From IMG/VR virus record IMGVR_UViG_3300037851_000547, positions 1 through 64,000 of that record: DNA of 64,000 nucleotides, one strand, 5' to 3'. The translations under genes and the position numbers were made by a program. The stretch is from a virus. The notes under the pieces are model-generated. The model had not been told where the DNA came from, did not search any database, and was given only the letters and a program-made list of their open reading frames with translations. Shown in pieces: positions 1-61,357 of the stretch (position 1 is the stretch's first letter; each line of letters begins with the position of its first letter).

Positions 1-52
1 AAGTCCACTCCGAACGACTCCCCTCACCACCAGCGCCCCAATCAACTCCACT

Positions 53-128
53 CCATTCCGGGGATAGAGTGGGGGGGGATCGTAAAAGCCTGAATTTACT
101 GCCCCCCCCCACTCTACCCCCGGAATGG
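53..128. repeat. Interrupted palindrome copy 1: CCATTCCGGGGATAGAGT+G8, 23-nt spacer, C9+ACTCTACCCCCGGAATGG
   Basis: Read directly. 53-78 is the reverse complement of 102-128 apart from one substitution and one extra C. The same arms recur at 39696-39722 and 39816-39842. Confidence 0.85.
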
Positions 129-183
129 GAGTAGACGGGTGGGTGGGAACTTGGTGGGTCACTCGACGTGGGCACACCTCTTG

Positions 184-732
184 CTAACTGGATTTTCGGC
201 GTTTCGTCAAGTACCAGGCACCGGCACCGGCCAGCAACAGCACGAACAGAGCCCCGAAACCTGCTTCTGGAGGAATGGCCGAAAGGATCGCCACAGGATC
301 AAGCCGTGGTGCCTCTGCGTCCTTCGGGTAAGGGGTATCCGATGTCTCGAAATGTAGGTGCGGAGCCCTGTTCTTCAGATCTTCGTTCTGAGGAGTCGAG
401 TAGGCGGTGTACCCCACCGTGCCGATCTGCTGTCCCTGCTTTATCCGGTCGCCTTGCTGTACGAGAAGTCGATCCAGATGCCCGTAGAGGTAGTAGAGCC
501 CTCGCGAACTCTGGATGACGACGGTTTTTCCGTACCCCCTGAAACCTGGCGTGTACGAGTCGATAGCTCGAGCCACCACGCCTCCCTCTGCGGCAACGAC
601 CGGCGTTCCCTTGTCGGCGACCAGATCGATACCCCTGTGGTAGTGCTCGGAGCCATCTTCTCGCGTACCTCGAAAGAACATGAACGACAGGATTCCACTG
701 GTCGGAACCCTGGCACTGGAAACTGGAAGCAT
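184..732 (-). CDS. M23/LytM-family peptidoglycan metallopeptidase with C-terminal membrane anchor
   Basis: 182-aa ORF with HYHRGIDL (HxxxD) and APHLHFE motifs. C-terminal hydrophobic helix FGALFVLLLAGAGAWYL. Confidence 0.8.
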   Translation of the reverse strand: MLPVSSARVPTSGILSFMFFRGTREDGSEHYHRGIDLVADKGTPVVAAEGGVVARAIDSYTPGFRGYGKTVVIQSSRGLYYLYGHLDRLLVQQGDRIKQGQQIGTVGYTAYSTPQNEDLKNRAPHLHFETSDTPYPKDAEAPRLDPVAILSAIPPEAGFGALFVLLLAGAGAWYLTKRRKSS

Positions 733-3444: not shown

Positions 3445-3645
3445 CTACATGATAGAAAATATCGGCAACACTACGACAGCTCCCTGGTCACGGACATCCA
3501 AGCAAAAGCTGGACACGCGGAACCTGCCGCCACACTGGTCGATGTACAGTCGTCCGTTGATGAGCCGATAGACAGTAGGCCACCACGACCCATCTGACCT
3601 ACCAGTGCGGCAGGTGTTGCATTTCGTCGTCTTACTTCCACTCAT
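3445..3645 (-). CDS. hypothetical small Cys-containing protein
   Basis: 66-aa ORF that fills the gap between the ParB-like gene and the next gene. 14-nt overlap with the ParB-like stop. Confidence 0.3.
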   Translation of the reverse strand: MSGSKTTKCNTCRTGRSDGSWWPTVYRLINGRLYIDQCGGRFRVSSFCLDVRDQGAVVVLPIFSIM

Positions 3646-4510
3646 CGGCCATCATGGCTTTCAGGCCCTTGACGACGGAAGGCCCGATTTCGCCCATCGC
3701 GAACTTGATTCCCTTGATGAACATCGGGTCGAGCCGCTCGTCCTCGACCAGCTCGTCGTTGCGTTTCAGAAGCCTCTTCAGAACCTTCTTGCCGGGTGCC
3801 TTCACGATGTTCTCGTTCTCCCCGAACATTCCATCGCTCTTGTGTCTCTTCACAGCAGCCCTCACGTCGCCGATCGTGGCCTTGCCTTCCGCGATGAGCT
3901 TGTCGGCTTGAGCTTTCTGCTCCTCGCGAGGAAGGTCAGACAGGTTGGCTGCAGCAGAAGCCGACATCTTGCCATCCTCGACGAGCTTCTGAACGGGAGC
4001 GACCAGATCTAAGAGCTTCAGATAGAGCTTCAGTCCGTTGAGTGTAACGCCGAAAATCTTCGCCGCGTCCTCCTCGCCGTTGCCGAGATCGATGTACCGC
4101 TGCACCTTTCGGGCCTTGGCCATCGGGCCGTCGTTCTCCCGCAGCTCGTTCTCCGAAACCATCATGCCGAAGGACTTGCTGTCGTCGGCGCGCTCGACGG
4201 TGGCTGGAACCCTGATGATTTCTCTTCCCTCCTTTCGCAGCTCCTCGTTGAGCGCTCTGGCGGCTTTGACGCGCCGGCGACCCTGGATGACCTCGGCCTT
4301 CTCTCCGTTCTTGCGGACGGATATGGACACCAGGATCTTCCCCAGCGCCTTGATGTTGGCGACGAGCTTTTGGTCAACCGGCTCGGTCGCCCTCTTGTCC
4401 CAGAGCGGGTGCTCCGGGCCGTCGTCGGTGTCGAGCCCGATGATCACCAGATCGTCAGGATCGAACAGGTACAGGTTGCTCCTCTTTGCGTCGAACGCAT
4501 TCTTTGCCAT
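3632..4510 (-). CDS. ParB N-terminal-domain (ParB/sulfiredoxin-like) DNA-binding protein
   Basis: 292-aa ORF. VSISVRKNGEKAEVIQGRRRVKAARAL matches the ParB GxRR box region. Helical C-terminal half. Confidence 0.7.
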   Translation of the reverse strand: MAKNAFDAKRSNLYLFDPDDLVIIGLDTDDGPEHPLWDKRATEPVDQKLVANIKALGKILVSISVRKNGEKAEVIQGRRRVKAARALNEELRKEGREIIRVPATVERADDSKSFGMMVSENELRENDGPMAKARKVQRYIDLGNGEEDAAKIFGVTLNGLKLYLKLLDLVAPVQKLVEDGKMSASAAANLSDLPREEQKAQADKLIAEGKATIGDVRAAVKRHKSDGMFGENENIVKAPGKKVLKRLLKRNDELVEDERLDPMFIKGIKFAMGEIGPSVVKGLKAMMADEWK

Positions 4511-6030: not shown

Positions 6031-6146
6031 GGCCGGCCCCTTCAGACTTCGGTAGAACGCCCATTCCGTCACGGGTCGTGAGGGGGGGGGACTCGCACGT
6101 TGCCCGAGTGAAGTTGCGTTCTTACCGAAGTATGAAAGGGCCGGCC
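6031..6146. repeat. Nested inverted repeat (about 30-nt arms) enclosing a CCCATTCCG...G9 core
   Basis: 6031-6060 (GGCCGGCCCCTTCAGACTTCGGTAGAACGC) is complementary to 6116-6146 at about 27 of 31 positions by my alignment. The centre carries CCCATTCCGTCACGGGTCGTGA+G9. Confidence 0.85.
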
Positions 6147-6696: not shown

Positions 6697-7450
6697 CTTC
6701 GTTTCCTTTCTCGGCATCGCCGAATATCTTGTTGCGGATCACCTTGAGGTCGGGTTCCTCCATTTCATCGAGCACTCCCGATCTGTCCCCCGCCCCGTCA
6801 TGGGTGGAGGTCAGAAGCTTCACGCCCTGGCCTTTCTCGTAGGCCATGCGAAGGATGAGGTCGGCGTCTCCCAGGAACCTGGCACCGGATTGCCCGCTGA
6901 GCGCCGGTTCTGGTCGGTGGGTAGTCCTGCTCTCGCGCTCCAGGGCGACGTTGACCACGTTGCAGGGATAGCTGTTGAGCATGTTGGCGCACTCGCTCAT
7001 CAGCCCGAGATTGATGCCCCAATCTGCCTGCGTGGTGATGTCTCGAACGAACTCGTCACGGTCGTCCTTGGCATCCGGGTTTCGCAGGCTGATCTTCCGC
7101 GCCTCAGTGAGAAGCATGATCTGAAGGTGTGTCACGGTATCGATCGCCGCCCAGACCTTGCTCGGAGGCACACCGGCCTTGATGACCTTGCGGACGATGT
7201 TCTTCCCCTCTTCCAGCGCTTCGCGCATGTCGGTAAGGTTGTAGACCTCCGCGACCACCAGCCTCTTTTCGTAAACCATTGGGTTGCGGTAGACCTCAAG
7301 CGTACCGTGATCGGTGGAGATCAAAACAACGAAGTCTCCATCCTTCACAAGCTTCAGCAGGGTCCTGGTCTTCCCCAGCTTCGGCGCTCCGAAAAGCAGC
7401 ACGGACAGCCGCTGCTTCTCCAGTTTGAACGTCCTGTTGAATATCGCCAC
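6677..7450 (-). CDS. Sak4-like / AAA_24-family RecA-fold ATPase
   Basis: The ORF track start (7591) overlaps the upstream gene. GTG at 7450 is preceded by GGAGGTTCAATA. Walker A LLFGAPKLGKT, Walker B-like WAAIDTVTHL. Confidence 0.7.
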   Translation of the reverse strand: MAIFNRTFKLEKQRLSVLLFGAPKLGKTRTLLKLVKDGDFVVLISTDHGTLEVYRNPMVYEKRLVVAEVYNLTDMREALEEGKNIVRKVIKAGVPPSKVWAAIDTVTHLQIMLLTEARKISLRNPDAKDDRDEFVRDITTQADWGINLGLMSECANMLNSYPCNVVNVALERESRTTHRPEPALSGQSGARFLGDADLILRMAYEKGQGVKLLTSTHDGAGDRSGVLDEMEEPDLKVIRNKIFGDAEKGNEDGNQTA

Positions 7451-10219: not shown

Positions 10220-10499
10220 GGTTTCCTCCGTTCGTTTCTGTCCTCTCAAGCGCTTCCATGAGCGCCTGCCAGAGCTTCATGGCGGAAATGTTCCAGACGT
10301 AGTGATGGTCAGGTTTATGGATAGAGATATCTATTCCTCCACCGATGCAGCCGGCTACTTCTCCAACAGTCTCGCCTGCATCGTTCTTTATTTCTACTAC
10401 GCAGTCGGCGAACCTCATATGAAGAACACCCCCACCGGGTCCGAAGTTGTACTTGGCCTTCAGGAGTATTTCGATCTCGTCGCCGAGCTTGTGTTTCAT
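10164..10499 (-). CDS. hypothetical protein
   Basis: 111-aa ORF. Its 3' end overlaps the lipoprotein start by 56 nt. Confidence 0.4.
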   Translation of the reverse strand: MKHKLGDEIEILLKAKYNFGPGGGVLHMRFADCVVEIKNDAGETVGEVAGCIGGGIDISIHKPDHHYVWNISAMKLWQALMEALERTETNGGNHEESQIPGDSTGARNGRL

Positions 10500-10780
10500 C
10501 TTTGACGATTCTTTCCTTGATCTGCTATTGCTTCAGCGATTTCCATGTACTCGGTGTAAACGTCAGCCAGTCTGTTGATTCTGGCACAGTGTTGCCTCTG
10601 TACTTCTTGGAACGCATTGGGACCCTGAACGTAGTAGTCACGAGCGTTCGGTGCCGCTTCACGAATCGCCTCCATTGCCAGGCGAAGCGCTTGAGCAGCG
10701 TCAGTTATCTGATCCATCAGCGTTTCCTTGCTCGTTCCGTTCAGATGAACTGTCGGAACTATCAGTCTATTCTCTGTCAT
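10496..10780 (-). CDS. hypothetical helical protein
   Basis: The track ORF 10496..11101 runs into a stop-free repeat. ATG at 10780 follows AAGGAGATCAAGGA. 94 aa. Confidence 0.5.
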   Translation of the reverse strand: MTENRLIVPTVHLNGTSKETLMDQITDAAQALRLAMEAIREAAPNARDYYVQGPNAFQEVQRQHCARINRLADVYTEYMEIAEAIADQGKNRQR

Positions 10781-10807
10781 TCCTTGATCTCCTTCATGGT
10801 TGCACCT

Positions 10808-11090
10808 TGCCTCGCCGCGCCAAGCCACGCCACGCCACGCCGCGCCTCGCCACGCCACGCCACGCCATGCCATGCCACGATCCTCGCCTCGCCAGGCCAC
10901 GCCTCGCCACGATCCTCGCCACGCCAAGCCTCGCCGCGCCTCGCCACGCCTCGCCAGGCCGCGCCTCGCCACGATCCACGCCTCGCCAGGCCACGCCTCG
11001 CCACGATCCTCGCCACGCCAAGCCCCGCCGCGCCTCGCCATGCCTCGCCAGGCCACGCCTCGCCAAGCCACGATCCACGATCCACGATCC
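10808..11090. repeat. Pentanucleotide (GCCNN/CCWCG) tandem array with higher-order 94/99-bp duplication and 7 GATC sites
   Basis: Read directly. About 55 consecutive 5-mers are punctuated by CACGATC units, with blocks at 10876-10969 and 10970-11068, then CACGATC x3. All six frames are open, and it fills the whole intergenic gap. Confidence 0.9.
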
Positions 11091-11093
11091 AAA

Positions 11094-11558
11094 CTACTCA
11101 TTCAGCTTCCTGAAAAGTTTCCTCGAATCAGCTACGGCAAGTTGTAGCCTGCTGCAAGACCGAATGAAGTGATCATTTATCTTTCGACTATCCTCGCTCA
11201 GCCTCGTGGAGTCAGTTGTCCTTGCTATGTCCTCTGCATCGACAATCATTTTTACAGCAGACTTTCCCTTCCTGTTGGTCAGTACAACCCTGGATTCAGG
11301 ATCTGCGGCCTGCAGACCGATACCGTTGATAGCCTTCATTATCACGTTGCTTTCGAAACGAAGCTTCTTTCTCCACTTCGAAACCACGCTGTTGAATCTG
11401 TGACTTCTATATGGAGTGTCGATAACAGCTTCTATTTCGGACCACCTGATGGTGACCCCCTCTTGCGGAATCCCGAATCGTTCCTTCAGCTTTTCAACGT
11501 CAGGATCGATCGGGATTCCGCCACTGAAGACCGCAGTCTTCGGAGCTTTTTCTGCCAT
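11094..11558 (-). CDS. hypothetical protein
   Basis: 154-aa ORF. Its stop abuts the pentanucleotide array. Confidence 0.5.
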   Translation of the reverse strand: MAEKAPKTAVFSGGIPIDPDVEKLKERFGIPQEGVTIRWSEIEAVIDTPYRSHRFNSVVSKWRKKLRFESNVIMKAINGIGLQAADPESRVVLTNRKGKSAVKMIVDAEDIARTTDSTRLSEDSRKINDHFIRSCSRLQLAVADSRKLFRKLNE

Positions 11559-28090: not shown

Positions 28091-28600
28091 CTACTCGACC
28101 ACCTTACCGTCCACCAGCCAGAACTTCCGGCCGTTGACAGCGGTATCGGACCCCTGCACGAGCTTCGCCGCCTCCGTGTACGACCTGCACTCCCGGTTGC
28201 CGTCCAGAACGTAGACCCGTTCCTCGCGACGAACTAGCTCGTGCTGCTCGCCCTTGTAGGTGCGGAAAGCCGTTGCGCCGACAGGCATCTCGTCGTTTAC
28301 GATAGTGCCCTTCCCGGTCGAGACTCCGCTACCCGTGCCAGCGGACTTCACCTTGATTCCGGAGCGATAGGACCGCTCGGAGATGTGTCCGTTCTCGTCG
28401 ATGCCGAAGGAGACGGTGCAGGCCTCGGGCGGAATGATCCCCTCGAGCTTCCCGACCAGCTCGGTCAGGTACGCCTTTTTCGACTCCGTGAGTTGCTCGT
28501 CTACCGCCTTCTTCTTCTCCATCGCTGCAGCGAGCAGCTTCTGGAGATCGGTAGGGGACAACCCTTCGAGCATCGCAAGCAGGTTCTGATTGTCTGACAT
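28091..28600 (-). CDS. hypothetical protein (N-terminal coiled coil, small C-terminal domain); first gene leftward of the divergent region
   Basis: 169-aa ORF with a GGAGG-type RBS. The C-terminal SYTEAAKLVQGSDTAVNGRKFW faintly resembles small DNA-binding domains. Confidence 0.55.
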   Translation of the reverse strand: MSDNQNLLAMLEGLSPTDLQKLLAAAMEKKKAVDEQLTESKKAYLTELVGKLEGIIPPEACTVSFGIDENGHISERSYRSGIKVKSAGTGSGVSTGKGTIVNDEMPVGATAFRTYKGEQHELVRREERVYVLDGNRECRSYTEAAKLVQGSDTAVNGRKFWLVDGKVVE

Positions 28601-28738
28601 AGTTTCCTCCGTTAGGTGGCGAACCTATGCCAGGTATTCCTGCCTGGTCACCAGTGCCAGGCATGGAACAAGCCTGACACGGGTTTTCCACATTTTCATA
28701 GAACGCCGGGATTTTCCCGGTTTCACATACTACTGGCC

Positions 28739-28945
28739 ATTGTACAGTAGGCCGTTTGGTTTTTTTCATTGCGCCTATTGAACGCCTTTTGCACGAAGTA
28801 GGCCTGGCGTACTGGACGCGCAAGGTGCGCGGTCTGGCCATTGTACAGTGTGTAGTCCTTGTACGCTTTGCGCTTGTTACGCGCGCTCTGCCGATTGTAC
28901 AGTCGCCGCCTGGCGTGCAAGGCGCGGTACTGTCCATTGTACAGT
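28739..28945 (+). repeat. Four direct copies of ATTGTACAGT (iteron- or operator-like)
   Basis: Copies at 28739-28748, 28840-28849, 28894-28903 and 28936-28945. Copies 2 and 4 share a longer CCTGGCGT...CAAGG.GCGCGGT..TG.CCATTGTACAGT unit. Confidence 0.8.
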
Positions 28946-29130
28946 TTGCGGGTTTTTGGCCAGTCGTACTGCATTGCCTGGGCCAAATTCCGGTCAACCG
29001 GCCTGGCGTTCCTGGCACGCCTACCGCCAATTGCGCCAATCTGGCCCGAAATCGCCCGGATTCGCCTCGCGATACCGTTCCTGGACCAGAAGTGGCTTCC
29101 TGAACCTAAACCGGGCCAGAAACGCCCTCA

Positions 29131-29715
29131 GTGGCCACGATCTGGCCGATTCTGGACCCGTTGCTACCGTTCACGGACAGAGTTACCCTGAATTTCATGC
29201 AGACACTCGAATCGATCCGCAGGTTTCATCGTGAACACCACTCGATCGTCTGCGGACCAGGCCATGCGCTCTCCAGAAGCGCGACAACGATCCGCGAATA
29301 CTACGACAAACAGCCTTTTCCAGCCTTCTTCGTGGTCCGCCTGGCTCGAACGAACCCTCACGAAGTCTACAAAATGCTCGTTCATGCTCTCGGCCGGATG
29401 CCAGCCAATGGACTACGCGACGATCTGCTCCTGGCCAGAGCCGCCTTGCTCGACCCGGATACCGACGAGTCAGAGCTGCAGCGCCACTACGAGATCATGA
29501 ACGCTCCCGAAAAGCCTGCGCGCCCGCATCAGTACTACCGCCTGGTCTACTACATGCTGAAGTGGCACCTCGGCATCGCTCCAGACACAAACCTGATCGC
29601 CGTCCAGGAAAAGATGCAGGAACAACTCCGAAGCTTCGGGGTTCCTGACCATAAAAACGTGCTTCTGTCGTGGTTCAAAGAAGGGATGCCGTTCGAGAAG
29701 TGGGTGAACCTCTAG
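29131..29715 (+). CDS. hypothetical protein (plus-strand gene divergent from the leftward operon)
   Basis: 194-aa ORF (GTG at 29131; alternative ATG at 29197). Its stop overlaps the convergent minus-strand gene. Confidence 0.5.
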   Translation: MATIWPILDPLLPFTDRVTLNFMQTLESIRRFHREHHSIVCGPGHALSRSATTIREYYDKQPFPAFFVVRLARTNPHEVYKMLVHALGRMPANGLRDDLLLARAALLDPDTDESELQRHYEIMNAPEKPARPHQYYRLVYYMLKWHLGIAPDTNLIAVQEKMQEQLRSFGVPDHKNVLLSWFKEGMPFEKWVNL

Positions 29716-33284: not shown

Positions 33285-33359
33285 GGTAGCGACGGTGGGA
33301 GTTGAACCCACTACCTCCGGAGTATGAGACCGGTGTGCAACCACCTACACTTCGTCGCA
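33285..33359 (-). tRNA. tRNA with CAU anticodon (Met, or Ile2 if lysidine-modified)
   Basis: Manual cloverleaf. The acceptor is GCGACG/CGTCGC with a U1-U72 mismatch. The D stem is GUGU/GCAC. The anticodon stem CCGG(U)/(U)CCGG carries the loop CUCAUAC. The T arm is GUGGG-UUCAACU-CCCAC. The discriminator is A followed by CC. A8 is atypical. Confidence 0.7.
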
Positions 33360-38691: not shown

Positions 38692-39195
38692 TCACCGTAT
38701 TGGTTTCCGGAGTCCCCTTTCCATTTGGATCTTGTCCCAGGCCACGTTCAGCCGCCTGAGCATGTCCCCGTCGCCTCCCCGGTCTGGGTGGAAGTCGGCG
38801 GCCAGCGCCCAGTACACCCGTTTCAGCGCGTCCGTAGACGCCGATCTAAGCAACGAGGCGACCGTCTGATATGTCCCGTCGTCCCGAACGGCTGACGGCC
38901 GCTGACGGGCCTCCTGACGCGGTTCCCGGCCGGTTTCAGCCCGGTTTCTCGGGCCGGTCGCCGGTCCCGGCTGGTCACCGACCTGTACATTTGGGAAGTA
39001 CTTCCTGGTGACGGCCACCAGTTCGTCCAGGCACGAGGGGTCGATCAGCCAGAGCTTCTCCTGCCGATTCCATTGCCGCAGCTTCCAGTCGATCTCGGTC
39101 TTCAGGGCGTCGTTGAAGGCCTCCAGGTATGGAGTCTTGCACTTCAGCCACCCGGCATCGGCCCAGATCCTCGGCGTCACGCTCCTACTCGGCAT
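38692..39195 (-). CDS. J-domain (DnaJ-like) protein
   Basis: C-terminal LKRVYWALAADFHPDRGGDGDMLRRLNVAWDKI contains the HPD motif. Confidence 0.7.
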   Translation of the reverse strand: MPSRSVTPRIWADAGWLKCKTPYLEAFNDALKTEIDWKLRQWNRQEKLWLIDPSCLDELVAVTRKYFPNVQVGDQPGPATGPRNRAETGREPRQEARQRPSAVRDDGTYQTVASLLRSASTDALKRVYWALAADFHPDRGGDGDMLRRLNVAWDKIQMERGLRKPIR

Positions 39196-39739
39196 ACGGC
39201 TCCAGTTTCACATCAGAGTTACAGTCTGGACAGAAAAGTCTATGACCTCTTCGGATTCTACCGAGCATCTGTGGCGTGATGAAGTGCTTCCGGCACCGGC
39301 AATAGACGAGGTACTGCTTGCTGATGGTCGGAGCGGGCGTCTGCATCTGGGCTCTCGCGTCGGAGTAACCACATCGCCGCATAAGCTCCTTCCATTCCTC
39401 TCCGTGATCGTTGACCTTTTGTTTCCGTCGCCGGCAGAACCGCTCGAAAACGAACAGGTGGCAGGCCTCGTGAATGATGGCCTCTGTCTTCTCCTCGTCA
39501 TCGAGGTAGTTCCAGAGCTGCGCAGACAGCTCGATCGCGTCTGATGCGAAGGTCGCTCTCCCGACAATGGACGTGAAGCGGTAGTTCCAGGAGACATGGA
39601 TCTGCTTCGAGAACCTCTGCAAACCGCATTTGTCCCCAGCCCAAGTGAGCAACCCTCGCACCCGTTCGTCCGAAGATAGTTCCCACCCTCCCCTCCCATT
39701 CCGGGGATAGAGTGGGGGGGGGAAGGTACAGCGTTCCAT
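39185..39739 (-). CDS. SprT-like zinc metallopeptidase with C-terminal zinc ribbon
   Basis: IIHEACHLFVFE (HExxH), HGEEWKELM, and CRC...CPDC. The start is uncertain: 39793, 39739 or GTG 39661. The two upstream options place the palindrome left arm inside the ORF. Confidence 0.65.
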   Translation of the reverse strand: MERCTFPPPLYPRNGRGGWELSSDERVRGLLTWAGDKCGLQRFSKQIHVSWNYRFTSIVGRATFASDAIELSAQLWNYLDDEEKTEAIIHEACHLFVFERFCRRRKQKVNDHGEEWKELMRRCGYSDARAQMQTPAPTISKQYLVYCRCRKHFITPQMLGRIRRGHRLFCPDCNSDVKLEPYAE

Positions 39740-39858
39740 TCTTGCCAAAGCTGTCTCCTGAGTCCGTACATCGCAGTTCATGCCACTGTCCATTGTTCAT
39801 TCCGTAGTTGCCGATCCCCCCCCACTCTATCCCCGGAATGGGCTGGTGGGAGGGTGGG
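39682..39858. repeat. Interrupted palindrome copy 2: C-rich G4 complement, CCATTCCGGGGATAGAGT+G9, 93-nt spacer, C8+ACTCTATCCCCGGAATGG, then GGGCTGGTGGGAGGGTGGG
   Basis: Read directly. The arms at 39696-39722 and 39816-39842 are near-identical to copy 1. The outer flanks are CCCACCCTCCCCTCC and GGTGGGAGGGTGGG. It lies in the divergent gap between the SprT-like and SLT genes. Confidence 0.85.
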
Positions 39859-39897
39859 ATCGTTGTGGGTCGGGAGCACCGATGGTAGGGTTGAGGG

Positions 39898-40467
39898 ATG
39901 GGACCTTTGGTTGGGCTACTCGCAGCCGGAATCCTGCTTCCGCTCCTGTTTCGGAAGCGGAAAGTCATCACCCCTGTCGGCGAGGTGCAGGTCACCATCG
40001 CCGAAGAAGCCAAGCGTCAGGGTCTCGATCCCGCCGTCGCCCTGCTGTTCGCAGACCTCGAGACCGGCTTCAAAAACGTCACCGGAGATAAAAACTGGCC
40101 GGCGAAGATCAGATCGGATGGCCGAACGAACTGGGAAACCTTCGTTCGAGACAATCCGCGGTACGACGACAACCCCTTCAGGGGAGACGCGGCTCTCTGG
40201 CTGTCATACGGACCATTCCAGCTCCTGGCACCGCACCACCTCTACAAGGTGAACCCAGATGCAGACCCGAGAATCCTCACGCAGCTTCCAGTGAACACCA
40301 AGATCGGAGTACAGCTCGTCAAGAAGCTGTACGACCAGTACAACGGCGACCTGGCTAAAATGCGTATTGCTTTTGTTTGCGGGGGCCTTTCCTCTTGCCC
40401 CGAACGTGCTTCTTCGGTGGTTGCTCGCCTTCGCTCTCGGGCTGAGAAGTACGGTCTTGCTGCGTAG
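39898..40467 (+). CDS. lytic transglycosylase (SLT domain) with N-terminal membrane anchor
   Basis: TM helix LVGLLAAGILLPLLF. LLFADLETGF (catalytic Glu region) and SYGPFQLL (GLMQ-like) motifs. Confidence 0.75.
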   Translation: MGPLVGLLAAGILLPLLFRKRKVITPVGEVQVTIAEEAKRQGLDPAVALLFADLETGFKNVTGDKNWPAKIRSDGRTNWETFVRDNPRYDDNPFRGDAALWLSYGPFQLLAPHHLYKVNPDADPRILTQLPVNTKIGVQLVKKLYDQYNGDLAKMRIAFVCGGLSSCPERASSVVARLRSRAEKYGLAA

Positions 40468-40499: not shown

Positions 40500-40724
40500 T
40501 TACCGGCTTGTGTAGTACTCTTCATCGCTGAATACCTCTCCCTTTCTGACTCTGTTCCAGTTCACTCCGTTGTACACGCTGGTTCCGAATCCAAAGACGA
40601 GTAGACCGATTCTCGCGATCGGATGCAAGCCCTCTCCCTTCCACCCGCCGTACATCATCATCGGGCCGATCACGAAGACATCTGCCAGCCGTACCCCCTG
40701 CGCTTTCGAACGACGCCGCTTCAT
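40500..40724 (-). CDS. small membrane protein
   Basis: 74 aa with two hydrophobic helices. Confidence 0.45.
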   Translation of the reverse strand: MKRRRSKAQGVRLADVFVIGPMMMYGGWKGEGLHPIARIGLLVFGFGTSVYNGVNWNRVRKGEVFSDEEYYTSR

Positions 40725-54931: not shown

Positions 54932-57844
54932 CTACGTGATCAGCAGCGGGGCCGCCAGAGCCGCACCCTCCACCAGACTCATCTTCGGAACCGTTATCCA
55001 GATCGCCTTCGGCAGGTCAGGAAAGTTGACGCCACCCTCGAGCTGGCTCTTTCTCACCCAGAGCGCCTGCGGCAGCTTCGGGAAGGACACCTCGCCGAGC
55101 TGCTTGCGGTAGCCCTTGCGTCCAGGAATCTGATTGCTTCGAAGCCACATGGCCTTGGGTGTCTTCGGGAAGGACACCTCGCCGAGCTGCTTGCGGTAGC
55201 CCTTCCTGCCGGCGATCTGCTTGCTTCGTACCCACATCGCCTGCGGAAGCTGTGGAAAACTCGGTGTCTTCGACTTCACCTTGCGGACGTAGATGGCTTC
55301 CGGTGTGTTCGGGAACTTCACGGCACCGGCCTCCAGACCTCGAAGCTGATCGGTTCGCACCCAGACAGGCATCCTGGTTTTCCAGTCGCTTGGAGCCTGT
55401 CCGAGTCCGCTGAAACGCTTGGTCTTGGCGCGCTCCACGAGCCGTTCCTTCTTTACCTTCAGCGCCTTCGCGACGCGCATCATCTGCTGATAGGTGACCG
55501 GATGCGAGTCGCGGAACTTCTTCTGCTTCTCGGGCGTCCATCCACGATAGCGCTGGAGCTGCCGGAACAGCTTGGTCGTCATGACATCGACGCCCAGGTC
55601 TCCGAAGTTGTAGTACTGATCGCTCGGAGGCTGCCCGACAATCTTTTCCTTCGACGCTTCTGCTCGCTGCTTCACGGCTTCGACCAGTTCCTGGTTCTCG
55701 ACATTTCCGATGTGCATGGCCCTTGCCGAGCCGCCGACCTTGCCGCACACCTTGTTCAGGTACTTCATCGAAGCAGCAGTAGGTGCGATCTCGGAAGAAG
55801 CGGCACCGATCATCTCCACACCACCCGCGGAGATCATTCCGCAAACGGAGTTGCGAGGGCTCTTGACGTACTTGTGAACTGCCTGTGCCTGGCGATAGAC
55901 CTCGCCGGCCACACCTTTCGATCCCTTCTTGAGAGCCTGAGCAGCAGCCTTGAGGCTCTCCTTCGGGATGTTCTGAAGCGTCTTCCAGTTGGTGGCGCTG
56001 ACGAGCTTCACGGCATTGGTTTCCCCGCTTGCGAGACGAGCGGTCTTCGAGAAAGCGGTCTTGACAGCCTTGCCGATGGCCTTGATCTCTGCCGGCTTGT
56101 TGATGAACTCGTATGGAGCGCTCTTGGGCGTGTCGGCTTCGGTATCACCGGCATCTCCGAACCATCCGAGAACGATGCGATCCAGTCCTCGAATCTGAGA
56201 CGGCGGGAAAAAGTATCCCTGCGCTCCATATGGAAGATCGTCTCTTGCCCAGATGGTCGGATTCACCGACTGGTCACCTTGTACCGAAAACTTCGCTTCG
56301 CGGATTGCTCCGAGACCCTGCAGCTGTATTTCGACTTCACCAGGAAAGTCATCGCGATACCAGATAGTCGGATTCACCGACTGGTCGCGGTCTTCCACGG
56401 AGAACTTCGCTTCGCGGATTGCCTCGAGACCCACCAGTGACTGAGGGTTACAAGGTATATCGTCTCTTGCCCAGATGGTCGGATTCACCATCTGGTCGCG
56501 GTCTTCTACGGAGAACCTCGCTTCGCGGATTGCCTCCAATCCGGTCAAGAAGGCTCCGCTCGGATCGTTCGGCTCTACTTCCTGGCTGAAGTACGGCGAT
56601 GGAATGGTCGGGGTGGCGTATGCCGATTCCTGTCCGAGTCCCTCGAGCTTGTTGGTGATCGCTGCTGGCATCACGGTTCCGCCGGTCACGCTCAGCGCTG
56701 CCGACTCGTTTCGGAACAGCTTTGCGTATGCGTCCTTCATCGCGCGCTGGTCTTCTTCCGAGAGGCCGCTCGTCTGGGCTTTCTTCTGGAGCAGCTCGAT
56801 GGCTTTCAGGTACCGCTCGCGTCTTCCAGAAAGACGGTTAAGCACGTCGTTCTTCCCTTGATAAGCCCACAGCTCCTTCTGCTTGGTGCGAACCGCCTTG
56901 AGATTCTTTGCCGTCTGGACGTGCTTCCCGAGCCCGGTAGACAGCACCTTTGCCGCTTCCTCGTTGCCGCTGGAAATGGCGTTCTTTGTGGCCCTGGTCA
57001 GCATTGCCTGGCCATCGGCGTTCTTGGAAAGCAGCGTTGCGGCTCCGTACAGCTTCATGTTCTGCACGGCTCGCCGGCCGACGCCGACAGCACGGCTATT
57101 CAGCCGCCTGACCTCGGTGAGCAGGCTGTCCATTTCCCTTGCGGTACTCGCATCGGTATTTCCGGAAATGGCTGTCTCCACGGCCTTCAGCGCCTTCGCC
57201 TTGGCTACCCGCTCCAGGCGATCGACGGTGGCCTTGTCCTTCTGGTAACTCTGGACAGCCTGCTTCGCCACGTTCAGTCTGTCCTTTGCGAGCTTGTCGA
57301 GCTGGGCCGCTTTCTGGCCGAGCTTGCTCACGACCATCTTCGCCATGTCGGAAGACGGATTGGCGGCAGCGACTCTCATCGCGCCGATCTGCGTCTGAAG
57401 CTTGAGATCTCCCGCTGCGCCGACCGTGCCGTTCTCTCCGAACCCCTCGATGCCGGCTCGCAGGAGCTTCACTTGGTCGGGATGGAGCTTCGCCATCTTC
57501 TGCTCGATGGCCCTGATTCGCTGGATCGCTTCTGGGTCTTTTGCAGGTATGACCTCGGTGACGGTAGGAAGGATGCTGGGTCCGTAGCTGACAGGATACG
57601 GCTGAATGACTGGCATGGGACGAGGACGCCTTGGAGGACGACGCCCACCGCTCGGGCGAGGAGGCCTTTCGAGAACCGTCGAAAGCTTGATAATTTCGTC
57701 CTCTGCATCGTTGGCTCCAGAGAGCAGGCTTTCGCTGCTCTGACGCGGAAAGTCGAACAGCGCACTGAGAAGGTCCAGCTCCGAAATCTCGTGCGCGCCC
57801 AGGCCGAAATCTTCGAGGAGCATGATTTGATCGCCTAGTGCCAT
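54932..57844 (-). CDS. 970-aa virion-associated repeat protein
   Basis: Three EAIREAKFSVEDRDQSVNPTIWARDD repeats (DNA about 56215-56570) and about four C-terminal FP.(T/L)P.A(M/I/L)W(V/L/I).. repeats; the two central copies continue ..GRKGYRKQLGEVS (about 54932-55330). Helical Ala/Lys-rich N-terminal half. Confidence 0.6.
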   Translation of the reverse strand: MALGDQIMLLEDFGLGAHEISELDLLSALFDFPRQSSESLLSGANDAEDEIIKLSTVLERPPRPSGGRRPPRRPRPMPVIQPYPVSYGPSILPTVTEVIPAKDPEAIQRIRAIEQKMAKLHPDQVKLLRAGIEGFGENGTVGAAGDLKLQTQIGAMRVAAANPSSDMAKMVVSKLGQKAAQLDKLAKDRLNVAKQAVQSYQKDKATVDRLERVAKAKALKAVETAISGNTDASTAREMDSLLTEVRRLNSRAVGVGRRAVQNMKLYGAATLLSKNADGQAMLTRATKNAISSGNEEAAKVLSTGLGKHVQTAKNLKAVRTKQKELWAYQGKNDVLNRLSGRRERYLKAIELLQKKAQTSGLSEEDQRAMKDAYAKLFRNESAALSVTGGTVMPAAITNKLEGLGQESAYATPTIPSPYFSQEVEPNDPSGAFLTGLEAIREARFSVEDRDQMVNPTIWARDDIPCNPQSLVGLEAIREAKFSVEDRDQSVNPTIWYRDDFPGEVEIQLQGLGAIREAKFSVQGDQSVNPTIWARDDLPYGAQGYFFPPSQIRGLDRIVLGWFGDAGDTEADTPKSAPYEFINKPAEIKAIGKAVKTAFSKTARLASGETNAVKLVSATNWKTLQNIPKESLKAAAQALKKGSKGVAGEVYRQAQAVHKYVKSPRNSVCGMISAGGVEMIGAASSEIAPTAASMKYLNKVCGKVGGSARAMHIGNVENQELVEAVKQRAEASKEKIVGQPPSDQYYNFGDLGVDVMTTKLFRQLQRYRGWTPEKQKKFRDSHPVTYQQMMRVAKALKVKKERLVERAKTKRFSGLGQAPSDWKTRMPVWVRTDQLRGLEAGAVKFPNTPEAIYVRKVKSKTPSFPQLPQAMWVRSKQIAGRKGYRKQLGEVSFPKTPKAMWLRSNQIPGRKGYRKQLGEVSFPKLPQALWVRKSQLEGGVNFPDLPKAIWITVPKMSLVEGAALAAPLLIT

Positions 57845-59936: not shown

Positions 59937-60620
59937 CTACTTGTTGACCGCTACCTTCAGCAGACCGTGAAGCCAGCACTTGACCGGGATGAAAAGCGCC
60001 TTCTCGAAGTTCGGCATCCCTACCGACTCCGGATTCGTACGCGTCCAGTCGGCCCACGCCCTGGAGTAGAACGTGAGGTAGCCGATGATCTCATGCTTCT
60101 CCGTGAGCGTCTGCGAGCGCAGAAGCTTCGGCACGGCCGCCTGCGACGGCACTCCGATGTTGGCGAAGAACGACGCGCCGAGACCGAGTGGATCTGGATA
60201 GATGCCCGGTCCGGTCAGACCGTACCCGCATCCGAACTTGATGATCGGACCCTCGGTCAGCAGCAGGTTGTTCACGTTGATGCGCAGATGGCCGTTGAAG
60301 ACGACCTGCGCCATGTCGTAGTTGGACACGGGATACGATCCCATCATCTGCTCGACGGAAGCGCCGATGCGATCGACCACCATCTCCTCGCCCATGCTCA
60401 GGCGCACGGGCTGGGTGAAGTTGGTATCGATCGGCAGCTTCCGCTCGATGTCACGGAAGAAGACGTACTGCTTGCCCGCCGTGATCGCCTCGAACCGCTC
60501 GCCATAGATCACGATGGTATCGTACTTGTCGTCTTCCCTGTACTCGGAGATGTTCAGAATGCTGCCGGAAGCAGTATCCAGGAACCGACCGGGCTGTCCT
60601 TTGATTGGTTTGAGTGCCAT
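59937..60620 (-). CDS. putative major virion (capsid-like) protein, paralog B
   Basis: 227 aa, roughly half identical to 60695..61357 (MALKPIKGQPGRFLDT..., LSMGEEMVVDR, GVPS.AA.PKL). Strong RBS AAAAAGGAGAGAGG. Confidence 0.5.
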   Translation of the reverse strand: MALKPIKGQPGRFLDTASGSILNISEYREDDKYDTIVIYGERFEAITAGKQYVFFRDIERKLPIDTNFTQPVRLSMGEEMVVDRIGASVEQMMGSYPVSNYDMAQVVFNGHLRINVNNLLLTEGPIIKFGCGYGLTGPGIYPDPLGLGASFFANIGVPSQAAVPKLLRSQTLTEKHEIIGYLTFYSRAWADWTRTNPESVGMPNFEKALFIPVKCWLHGLLKVAVNK

Positions 60621-60694: not shown

Positions 60695-61357
60695 TTACTT
60701 GCTTGCGGCGGTCTTGATGAGGCCGTGCAGGAAAGCAGTGACGGTCATGCCCGGCTCGGTAACGAGCTGGATCGGCGTGATCGAGGCGAGTGAGACGTTG
60801 GGCTCCGATAGAATCCAGTCGCGGTTCTGGAAGATCAGGTAGCCGACCATCTCGTGCTTGCTGGTGAGCGTCTGGGTCTTGACGAGCTTCGCCGCCGCTG
60901 CGGTCGAGGGCACGCCCACGCCGAAGTTCGGGGTGCTCGGCGAGTAGCCGCCGACGCCGTATCCGCTCGGGAACTTGAACGCCGGCCCTTCGATGAGCAG
61001 CAGCGCGTTCACGTCCACGCGGAAGAACGAGCTTTCGATGACGCGCAGGAAGTCTACTCCGGTGGAATCGACCTCGTGTCCGCTGATGACGTGACGGGGG
61101 TACAGGCCCACTCGATCCACGACCATCTCCTCGCCCATCGACAGGCGAGAGGGCTGCGTGAAGTTGCAGTCCACAGGACGCTTCTGCGCGATGTCCCGGA
61201 AGAAGATGTACTGCGAACCGAACTCGATCGCGACCTCGCTCGAGATGAAGATCGAATCGTACTTGTCGTCTTCGCGGTACTCGGCGATGTTGAGAACCTG
61301 ACCGCTTCCGGTGTCCAGAAAGCGACCCGGCTGTCCCTTGATTGGTTTGAGTGCCAT
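60695..61357 (-). CDS. putative major virion (capsid-like) protein, paralog A
   Basis: 220 aa. See paralog B. RBS CAGGAGATACGAA. Confidence 0.5.
   Translation of the reverse strand: MALKPIKGQPGRFLDTGSGQVLNIAEYREDDKYDSIFISSEVAIEFGSQYIFFRDIAQKRPVDCNFTQPSRLSMGEEMVVDRVGLYPRHVISGHEVDSTGVDFLRVIESSFFRVDVNALLLIEGPAFKFPSGYGVGGYSPSTPNFGVGVPSTAAAAKLVKTQTLTSKHEMVGYLIFQNRDWILSEPNVSLASITPIQLVTEPGMTVTAFLHGLIKTAASK

Follow-up and report, generated by a model that had tools for sequence, protein, structure and literature searches.

A matched pair of G-rich palindromes beside cell-wall hydrolase genes in an uncultured phage genome: possible recognition sites of a phage-encoded factor

The palindrome between the SprT-like and lytic-transglycosylase-like genes

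The stretch of DNA analysed here (the window) comprises 64,000 nt of IMG/VR record IMGVR_UViG_3300037851_000547 and was drawn from an 80,211-nt JGI contig; by adding overlapping Logan contigs (including L030, to the left of the window), 73.9 kb of this genome became readable. Gene-dense and phage-like, with almost every gene on the minus strand, the window has genes for a helicase, a ligase, an exonuclease and a Dam-type methylase, as well as for a ParB-like protein, an M23 peptidase and a SprT-like protease. It derives from an uncultured phage whose genome measures about 80 kb. Among 50,697 GenBank phage records, no DNA match to the window genome and no match to its lytic transglycosylase (LT)-like protein was found, and the helicase gave only matches of ~30% identity; searches of IMG/VR proteins with the LT-like and SprT-like proteins and with an LT alignment yielded no relatives. 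The subject of this report is a long palindrome that separates the SprT-like gene from the LT-like gene in the only divergent intergenic region nearby (the LT site), together with its matched copy beyond the stop codon of the M23-peptidase gene at the start of the window (copy 1, the M23 site). The LT site consists of the following features.

39185-39664, minus strand: SprT-like metalloprotease gene, probable start GTG 39664 or TTG 39655 (Pfam E = 6.6e-16)
39682-39694: left outer stem extension, CCCACCCTCCCCT; leftward G-quadruplex (G4) motif on the minus strand; not conserved in relatives
39695-39722: left arm, CCCATTCCGGGGATAGAGT followed by G9, with the G run innermost
39723-39815: spacer, 93 nt, 49% G+C (GC)
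39785-39801, plus strand: operator-like motif ACTGTCCATTGTTCATT, whose reverse complement contains TGGACA, -35-like on the main strand
39816-39842: right arm, C8 followed by ACTCTATCCCCGGAATGGG, 100% complementary to the left arm
39843-39858: right outer stem extension; rightward G4 motif, with GGGAGGGTGGG; also the linker between the arm and the -35 box of the LT promoter
39863-39891, plus strand: LT promoter, sigma70-type; -35 TTGTGG (39863-39868), 17-nt spacer, -10 TAGGGT (39886-39891), then 6 nt to ATG 39898
39898-40467, plus strand: LT-like (lysozyme-fold) gene, 189 aa, with an N-terminal transmembrane segment

An earlier note on this DNA, made from the sequence alone, had described a palindrome between these two genes whose arms match a second copy at the window start and form a very stable hairpin; the first two points were confirmed, and the third agrees with predicted folding. 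The inverted repeat lies at 39695-39721 and 39816-39842, with 27-nt arms that are 100% complementary and 94 nt between them; G9 closes the left arm (39714-39722) and C8 opens the right arm (39816-39823). Folding of the LT site was predicted at -56 kcal/mol as DNA (z = -9.0) and at -107 kcal/mol as minus-strand RNA (z = -8.6), so that z lies between -8 and -9 in either form. The 19-mer ACTCTATCCCCGGAATGGG occurs four times at no more than one mismatch, against 0.02 expected, and all four occurrences are in the four arms of the two palindromes; a search with the 17-mer core of the arm, covering the window and the 8.9 kb on its left, gave no additional copy. The location in a divergent gap, the second copy and a spacer motif related to the repeat array at 28.6-29.1 kb support that part of the interpretation in the earlier note by which the inverted repeat is a specific, non-random cis-element of this mobile genome. 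In Rfam, only a tRNA-Met in the window reached the gathering threshold, and the palindrome gave sub-threshold chance matches to miRNA and snoRNA models.

A matched copy at the M23 site

The features at the start of the window are as follows.

2-7, minus strand: -35 box TGGACT of the operon promoter downstream of the M23 site; the remainder lies outside the window, at L030 10840-10868
53-128: copy 1, arms 53-86 and 95-128, effective loop 8 nt
127-147, plus strand: G4 motif abutting the right arm
184-732, minus strand: M23-peptidase gene (184-768 with its own promoter)
768-739, minus strand: M23-peptidase promoter, leaderless-type, TTGACC-N18-TAGACT-N6-ATG, conserved in the related contig L036

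Copy 1 has 34-nt arms that are 88% complementary, and its RNA folding was predicted at -83.7 kcal/mol (z = -8.1). It sits in a 228-nt gap between co-directional genes, 56 nt from the stop codon of the M23-peptidase gene and 97 nt from the next gene, and what its right arm faces is no gene start but the M23-peptidase 3' end.

The centres of the two palindromes are separated by 39,678 nt, or 49.5% of the 80,211-nt contig, itself perhaps neither complete nor circular. On a circular genome of ~80 kb the matched palindromes would leave halves of 39.7 and ~40.5 kb, and a hairpin, cruciform or inter-strand G-quadruplex formed at them could be read by a phage protein for a genome-scale DNA transaction rather than for gene regulation; paired origins, a fork trap, or cutting or packaging at two symmetric sites could be candidates. 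Each arm is a G3-5/N4-9/G5-9 unit comparable with the Oxytricha G4T4G4 hairpin-dimer motif. We consider such a genome-scale role decidedly improbable.

A third long local palindrome lies at 6031-6146, in the gap between the gene for a 374-aa protein and the DUF669 gene. Its 24-nt arms (GGCCGGCCCCTTCAGACTTCGGTA / TACCGAAGTATGAAAGGGCCGGCC) are separated by a 68-nt spacer, in which a half-arm-like CCCATTCCG-N13-G9 (6060-6090) is accompanied by two small hairpins. This palindrome could represent either a structured RNA or a degenerate third site.

Conservation in related genomes

The LT site was compared with four palindrome-bearing relatives (L024, L026, L027 and L032) and with the most distant one, L034. 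L024 and L036 come from the same metagenome-assembled genome and the same run, and together represent a second genome, G2. Palindromes of the same design and of different sequence lie upstream of the LT gene in the window and in all four palindrome-bearing relatives, whose LT proteins, with that of the window, are 48-56% identical. From the outside inwards, an arm consists of a pyrimidine-rich run, CYGGG(G), 4-9 A/T/G-rich nt and an innermost G5-9. The LT-site spacers of the relatives are 42-105 nt long, with 29-46% GC in the four.

In G2, both palindrome sites are occupied at the same syntenic positions with an arm sequence of their own. The G2 M23 site (L036) lies in the same gap after the M23 gene and has the palindrome GCTTTTCCCTGGGAAAAAAGTGGGG-ATCGG-CCCCACTCTACCTCCTGGGAAAAG, with a 5-nt loop; a third relative keeps a 259-nt gap at this site. 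The asymmetry between left and right arm in G2 is identical at the LT and M23 sites. Identity of like arms between the two sites of one genome is 0.80-0.96, compared with a mean of 0.51 between genomes, so that paralogous sites are more alike than orthologous ones, though both sites predate the split of the genomes. This points to co-evolution with a specificity factor encoded by each genome, or to concerted evolution by gene conversion; such a pattern is not expected for host sigma-factor signals or generic terminators. Both arms are kept at every site, despite spacers of 5-105 nt.

An nhmmer profile of 14 arms detected no further arm in ~130 kb (the window and related loci). Scans with the 18-mer ACTCTAYCCCCGGAATGG gave 0 single matches in IMG/VR, 11 in JGI metagenomes and 11 in GTDB genomes; none had a C run or a partner arm, and these were rejected as chance matches. 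By this measure the exact arm motif is missing from the three collections scanned.

Inverted repeats that flank a short segment possibly holding a promoter, in two copies per genome, recall a mobile or switching element, either a palindromic insertion similar to a miniature inverted-repeat transposable element (MITE) or an invertible promoter segment. The copies, however, occupy the same two syntenic positions in genomes of ~55% protein identity, target-site duplications are absent in general, and no recombinase or transposase was seen. Inversion is further opposed by the spacers, whose orientation agrees between independent assemblies in each of three genomes, and by the 5-24 nt loops of the M23 site, which cannot invert. 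We therefore regard a mobile or switching element as barely credible. Several specific classes were rejected: an inverton, on the single spacer orientation in three pairs of independent assemblies and the lack of a recombinase; MITE or insertion sequence (IS) ends, on flanks that are generally not duplicated and the synteny of both copies in two genomes; attC/Xer-type sites and IS200/IS605-type ends, on the spacers, the synteny and the lack of matching enzymes; and a protelomerase target (telRL-type), on the non-palindromic spacers of 5-105 nt and the failure to detect a protelomerase gene.

Stem structure and read-through

The palindromes could instead be purely structural RNA hairpins for host machinery, with copies that are alike by gene conversion and no phage-specific factor. 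On main-strand read-through transcripts they would then terminate transcription in a non-canonical way, stabilise 3' ends or be processed as RNase III-type sites. The stems are very stable, both arms are kept whatever the loop size, and the M23-site stem lies 51-56 nt after the stop codon. Canonical terminators, like canonical promoters, are few elsewhere on the coding strand, and the phage encodes recombination proteins (PDDEXK_1, AAA_24, DUF669). No terminator was found between the LT-like gene and the gene convergent with it, so read-through across the LT-site palindrome is plausible, and on the hairpin explanation likely. The distance from the left arm to the probable SprT start, only 31-47 nt, is too short for a promoter, so that the SprT-like gene would be transcribed from within the spacer or by read-through. 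On the other hand, neither stem is followed by a U-tract, and the G-box motif is kept across genomes of very different GC, which structure alone does not need. The central mismatches of G2 are the same at both sites without being compensated, and mismatches compatible with G-U pairing show no strand bias. We judge this explanation unlikely, while allowing it some weight. An intrinsic terminator in particular was rejected: the stem is present, but no T run follows either arm on either strand at either site, nor in G2, and the loops of the LT sites are 42-105 nt.

G-quadruplex motifs

With a canonical G4 motif defined as four tracts of the form G3+N1-7, the 64-kb window contains only three, at 39682-39697 (minus strand), 39840-39858 (plus strand) and 127-147 (plus strand). 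They abut three of the four arm ends, the left flank of copy 1 having none. As all three in 64 kb lie beside arms, their placement is non-random in this genome. Of the outward-facing G4 motifs described in the earlier note, the presence and canonical form of both G runs stood. Conservation, which would be expected of a functional G4, did not show: no G4 motif was found at the related loci L024, L026, L027 and L032. The leftward and rightward runs are complementary to each other (CCCACCCTCCC / GGGAGGGTGGG) and add ~12 bp to the stem. Being mutually complementary and missing from related loci, the outward G runs are regarded as a genome-specific extension of the stem, not as a conserved functional part.

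Two further G4 motifs occur left of the window, at L030 17543-17646 and 17702-17713, in a 346-nt gap between NUDIX and CxxCxxCC genes.

Promoters next to the arms

The upstream regions of the LT gene in the five palindrome-bearing genomes were compared after anchoring at the start codon. All five have TTGnnn-N17/18-TA(G/C)nnT, then exactly 6 nt, then the start codon. This architecture, of which the window has only four sites, stands outside the right arm, 10-23 nt from it. It is a host-type promoter, and the 6-nt gap predicts a leaderless mRNA. The M23-peptidase and LT-like genes share this design, always with exactly 6 nt from the -10 box to the ATG, in both the window genome and G2 (L036 ~2010-2047; L024 ~7380-7413). 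Beyond the M23-site palindrome, at 46/47 nt from the arm, both genomes carry another promoter, TGGAC(T/A)-N17/18-TAT(C/A)(A/C)T. For annotation, the -10 box 6 nt from the start that is shared by the LT-like gene, the M23-peptidase gene and one more plus-strand gene predicts leaderless mRNAs.

Within the arms, no -35/-10 hexamers at 16-18 nt spacing were found. Since a conserved sigma70-type promoter stands outside the right arm, the arms are neighbours of promoters, not promoters. The view of the earlier note, that the arms form paired divergent promoters with each half upstream of a gene, possibly served by an element-encoded RNA polymerase or sigma factor and recurring ahead of other operons, was therefore not borne out. 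Of the four outward-facing halves, one is directed at the M23 gene from its 3' side. The 19-mer is confined to the two palindromes in the window, its left flank and the related loci. No RNA-polymerase- or sigma-like protein turned up among the open reading frames (ORFs) scanned with Pfam and PHROGs (mostly the larger ORFs of the 73.9 kb, many ORFs being matchless), and the large ORFs scanned for an RNA polymerase are of low complexity. For a promoter of a single-subunit phage RNA polymerase (T7-like or N4-like), too, there was neither a polymerase match nor a recurrent motif.

The notion of special divergent promoters, in which each outward half (poly-C, 19-mer, G4) would be read by an element-specific polymerase or sigma factor with the involvement of G-quadruplexes, draws on the specificity of the motif for this element, on the three of four halves that face a gene start, and on the position of the only three G4 motifs of the window against the arms. 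These points are outweighed by the conserved sigma70-type promoters outside the arm (at the LT gene in five genomes and at the post-M23 operon in two), by the half facing a gene 3' end, by the lack of G4 motifs in all relatives compared and of a polymerase or sigma factor among the ORFs scanned, and by a motif that lies upstream of no other gene. We regard special divergent promoters as very improbable.

The spacer motif and a distant repeat array

A 12-mer, ACTGTCCATTGT, was said in the earlier note to be shared by the spacer and an iteron region. It is present at both places, 39785-39796 and 28929-28940, the latter inside a four-copy CCATTGTACAGT array; a lone 12-mer match is, however, at about chance level (~0.6 expected, by rough estimate) and by itself is not significant. 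G2 shows a parallel relation: in the window and in G2, the spacer motif resembles the array repeats of its own genome. The window and L024 (G2) spacers have CTGTCMATTGTWCA in common, 11-14 nt from the LT-proximal arm. The reverse complement of the spacer motif contains T(G/T)GACA, a -35-like hexamer on the main strand, and the G2 spacer contains a full main-strand promoter, TTGAAC-N18-TACAAT.

The array belongs to a non-coding region of ~0.6 kb, with CCATTGTACAGT repeats at 28737, 28838, 28892 and 28934. Next to this region comes a conserved plus-strand gene (29197-29715, 172 aa), and the two together (window 28600-29715) have their counterpart at L024 2493-3655. The gene has a leaderless-type promoter, TTGCTA-N17-TACCCT-N7-ATG; the product is 30% identical to its L024 homologue (E = 4e-33) and gave no family match. 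From its layout, the 28.6-29.1 kb region looks like an immunity/operator region or an origin. A reverse-complement copy of the array repeat, CTGTACAATG, lies in the 346-nt NUDIX-CxxCxxCC gap on L030.

Replication sites were considered in this light. The arms could be inverted initiator boxes around an easily melted spacer, forming an origin, or a polar fork trap, with the two sites about half a genome apart. Location between divergent genes recalls palindromic viral origins, the relatives have AT-rich spacers at the LT site (29-46% GC, compared with 49% in the window), the spacer holds an iteron-like motif, and the copies are separated by 49.5% of the contig. The contig on which that spacing was measured may be incomplete or linear; moreover, the 5-nt loop of the G2 M23 site leaves no room for an unwinding element, GC skew has no inflection at either site, and the non-coding repeat array at 28.6-29.1 kb is the better candidate for an origin or operator. 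A replication role is thus distinctly unlikely.

A proposed role as recognition sites

The element is best described as a bipartite G-box palindrome whose spacing is free and which occurs as a matched pair; regulatory palindromes are common in phages in principle. We propose, with a probability of roughly 45%, that a phage-encoded factor recognises the palindromes and that these serve as boundaries or regulatory devices for the transcription units next to them, both cell-wall hydrolase genes included, because two syntenic sites exist, their arms evolve in concert, both arms are kept, the motif is unique, and host-type promoters lie just outside. The binding of such a factor and the effect of its binding are both suggested by sequence comparison. 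A sequence-specific nucleic-acid-binding factor encoded by the phage would recognise the arms, and the element would thereby insulate or modulate the ordinary host-type promoters located 10-23 nt (LT) and 46-47 nt (next operon) outside the arm. In the sub-mechanism that we favour, at roughly even odds with plain binding to duplex DNA, a read-through transcript with both arms, or single-stranded DNA, would fold into the long stem, which would then be bound, stopped or processed; transcripts starting inside the long LT-site spacer would carry one arm only and escape. The slight preference for action in such a paired form is speculative. It derives from the 5-105 nt spacing, which ill suits a dimer on duplex DNA, and from the complementarity in the window, which reaches into the non-conserved flanks and favours the paired form.

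One candidate for the factor is a full-length ParB/KorB-family helix-turn-helix protein encoded at 3632-4510, which matches PF17762 (2.5e-8) and phrog_1033 (1e-30). Compared with a ParB-parS or KorB-type operator, the arms are non-contiguous, and binding by this protein is putative. The same protein bears on the idea that the palindromes are sites of other DNA transactions, either parS-like centromeres for the ParB-like protein or cos/pac packaging signals. The sites are genome-specific and few, and phage N15 has dispersed palindromic centromere sites, the SopB sites IR1-4, in its genome (PMC7205306). No ParA gene was seen in the window genome, however, and the half-sites of parS are contiguous, in contrast to the 5-105 nt here. 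As to packaging, no terminase was recognisable next to either palindrome, and independent assemblies continue through both palindromes with no ends there. Partition or packaging sites are therefore quite improbable.

Several points weigh against recognition sites of a phage-encoded factor. The variable spacing of the arms is awkward for a dimeric binder of duplex DNA, and the missing U-tract is awkward for intrinsic termination. The mismatches between arms give no sign of a strand-specific G-U bias: 6 are wobbles on the main strand, 6 are wobbles on the opposite strand, and 6 are non-wobble. Gene conversion, and not a trans-acting factor, could account for the identity of the arms within a genome. 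No palindrome is present in L034, the most distant relative (39% LT identity). A conserved complete main-strand promoter was sought in the spacers and in the gap between the left arm and the SprT-like gene, and a clear one was found only in G2.

If the recognition-site proposal is true, a self-specific palindromic signal at two sites would partition a single-strand gene array into separately controlled units around two cell-wall hydrolase genes. It would be a compact example of a cis-site and a trans-acting factor evolving together in a lineage with no cultured relative, and would offer a handle on lysis and late-gene timing in phages that lack recognisable regulators.

Likeness to known systems

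By analogy, the palindromes are most like phage and plasmid operator palindromes read by an element-encoded regulator, and they also resemble the lambda nut sites in the logic of two matched sites. The KorB OB sites of plasmid RK2 lie just upstream of -35 boxes or at a distance. The likeness to ParB/KorB-family operators consists of few, genome-specific palindromic sites close upstream of host-type promoters and the presence of a ParB-family gene. In KorB/SopB-type systems the sites are recognised by an element-encoded protein, as is proposed here; those sites, however, are contiguous and 13-16 bp long, whereas the arms here are of 20-28 nt, contain G-tracts and lie 5-105 nt apart.

The nutL and nutR boxB elements of lambda-type phages form two sites per genome, giving hairpins in the transcript near operon starts; nut sites are identical within a phage, differ from one related phage to the next and evolve together with a protein of the phage. 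Two matched sites per genome, with a match within the phage and divergence between phages, are thus common to both systems. In contrast, boxB is a 15-nt hairpin of which one strand is read, the stems here are of 25-40 bp and symmetric on both strands, and no N-like protein or boxA was identified here. In the p4/p6 switch of phi29, inverted repeats between divergent early and late promoters bind the regulator and fold the promoter DNA. The likeness lies in inverted repeats within a divergent intergenic region, but the p4 half-sites have a fixed spacing and no second distant copy.

Intrinsic or bidirectional terminators and the RNase III hairpins of T7 are also stable GC-rich stems in the intergenic gaps of a polycistronic phage genome, and the central mismatched segment between two helices in several of the relatives adds to this likeness. 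They differ in that the sites here have no U-tract, loops of up to 105 nt, and a motif that is conserved and matched between sites. The herpes simplex virus (HSV) origins oriS and oriL are palindromic viral origins between divergent genes, and IRI/IRII of B. subtilis are inverted Ter pairs. Inverted boxes that flank a spacer between divergent genes, in more than one copy per genome, are the shared trait; one 5-nt loop and a separate repeat array set the present case apart.

Neighbouring genes and other features of the genome

The gene labels of the earlier note hold, the SprT-like one by the Pfam match and the LT-like one by a weak fold match. The longest SprT ORF (39185-39793) crosses the left arm. 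The Pfam match begins at residue 60, and this, together with the start position called for the homologue in L024, makes GTG 39664 or TTG 39655 the most likely true start. The LT-like gene is among the few plus-strand genes in the window. Its product gave no Pfam or PHROG match; an AlphaFold model (predicted local distance difference test, pLDDT, 81.6) gave weak matches (best E = 0.015), all of them to lytic transglycosylases or lysozyme-like endolysins. The protein has the conserved E and SYGPFQLL motifs and seven homologues at 39-56% identity. Convergent with it, on the minus strand at 40500-40724, is a gene whose 74-aa product has two predicted membrane segments; this product may be a holin, in which case the locus would be a small lysis cassette.

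Searches of Pfam, PHROG and PDB sequences gave nothing usable for the genes past the M23 site. An N-terminal segment of ~55 aa, phrog_4302, is common to three consecutive proteins (272, 396 and 199 aa) encoded at L030 13859-16556; these resemble tail-fibre paralogues, an indication that the operon following the M23-site palindrome has structural or late functions.

Elsewhere in the window, the tRNA-Met (CAT) gene lies inside the gene array (33285-33359, minus strand), and a tandem array with a 5-nt period (GCCAC/GCCTC units, 10804-11105) is located within the minus-strand ORF 10496-11101. A 970-aa ORF has internal repeats at 55051-55224 (2 x 87 nt) and 56232-56548 (3 x 111 nt); the neighbouring ORFs of 733 and 796 aa are K/A/E-rich and of low complexity, with peptidoglycan-binding domains, and they probably encode virion or tail proteins. 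Two adjacent genes (227 aa and 220 aa) are paralogous, with 75-79% nucleotide identity between 60363-60620 and 61106-61357.

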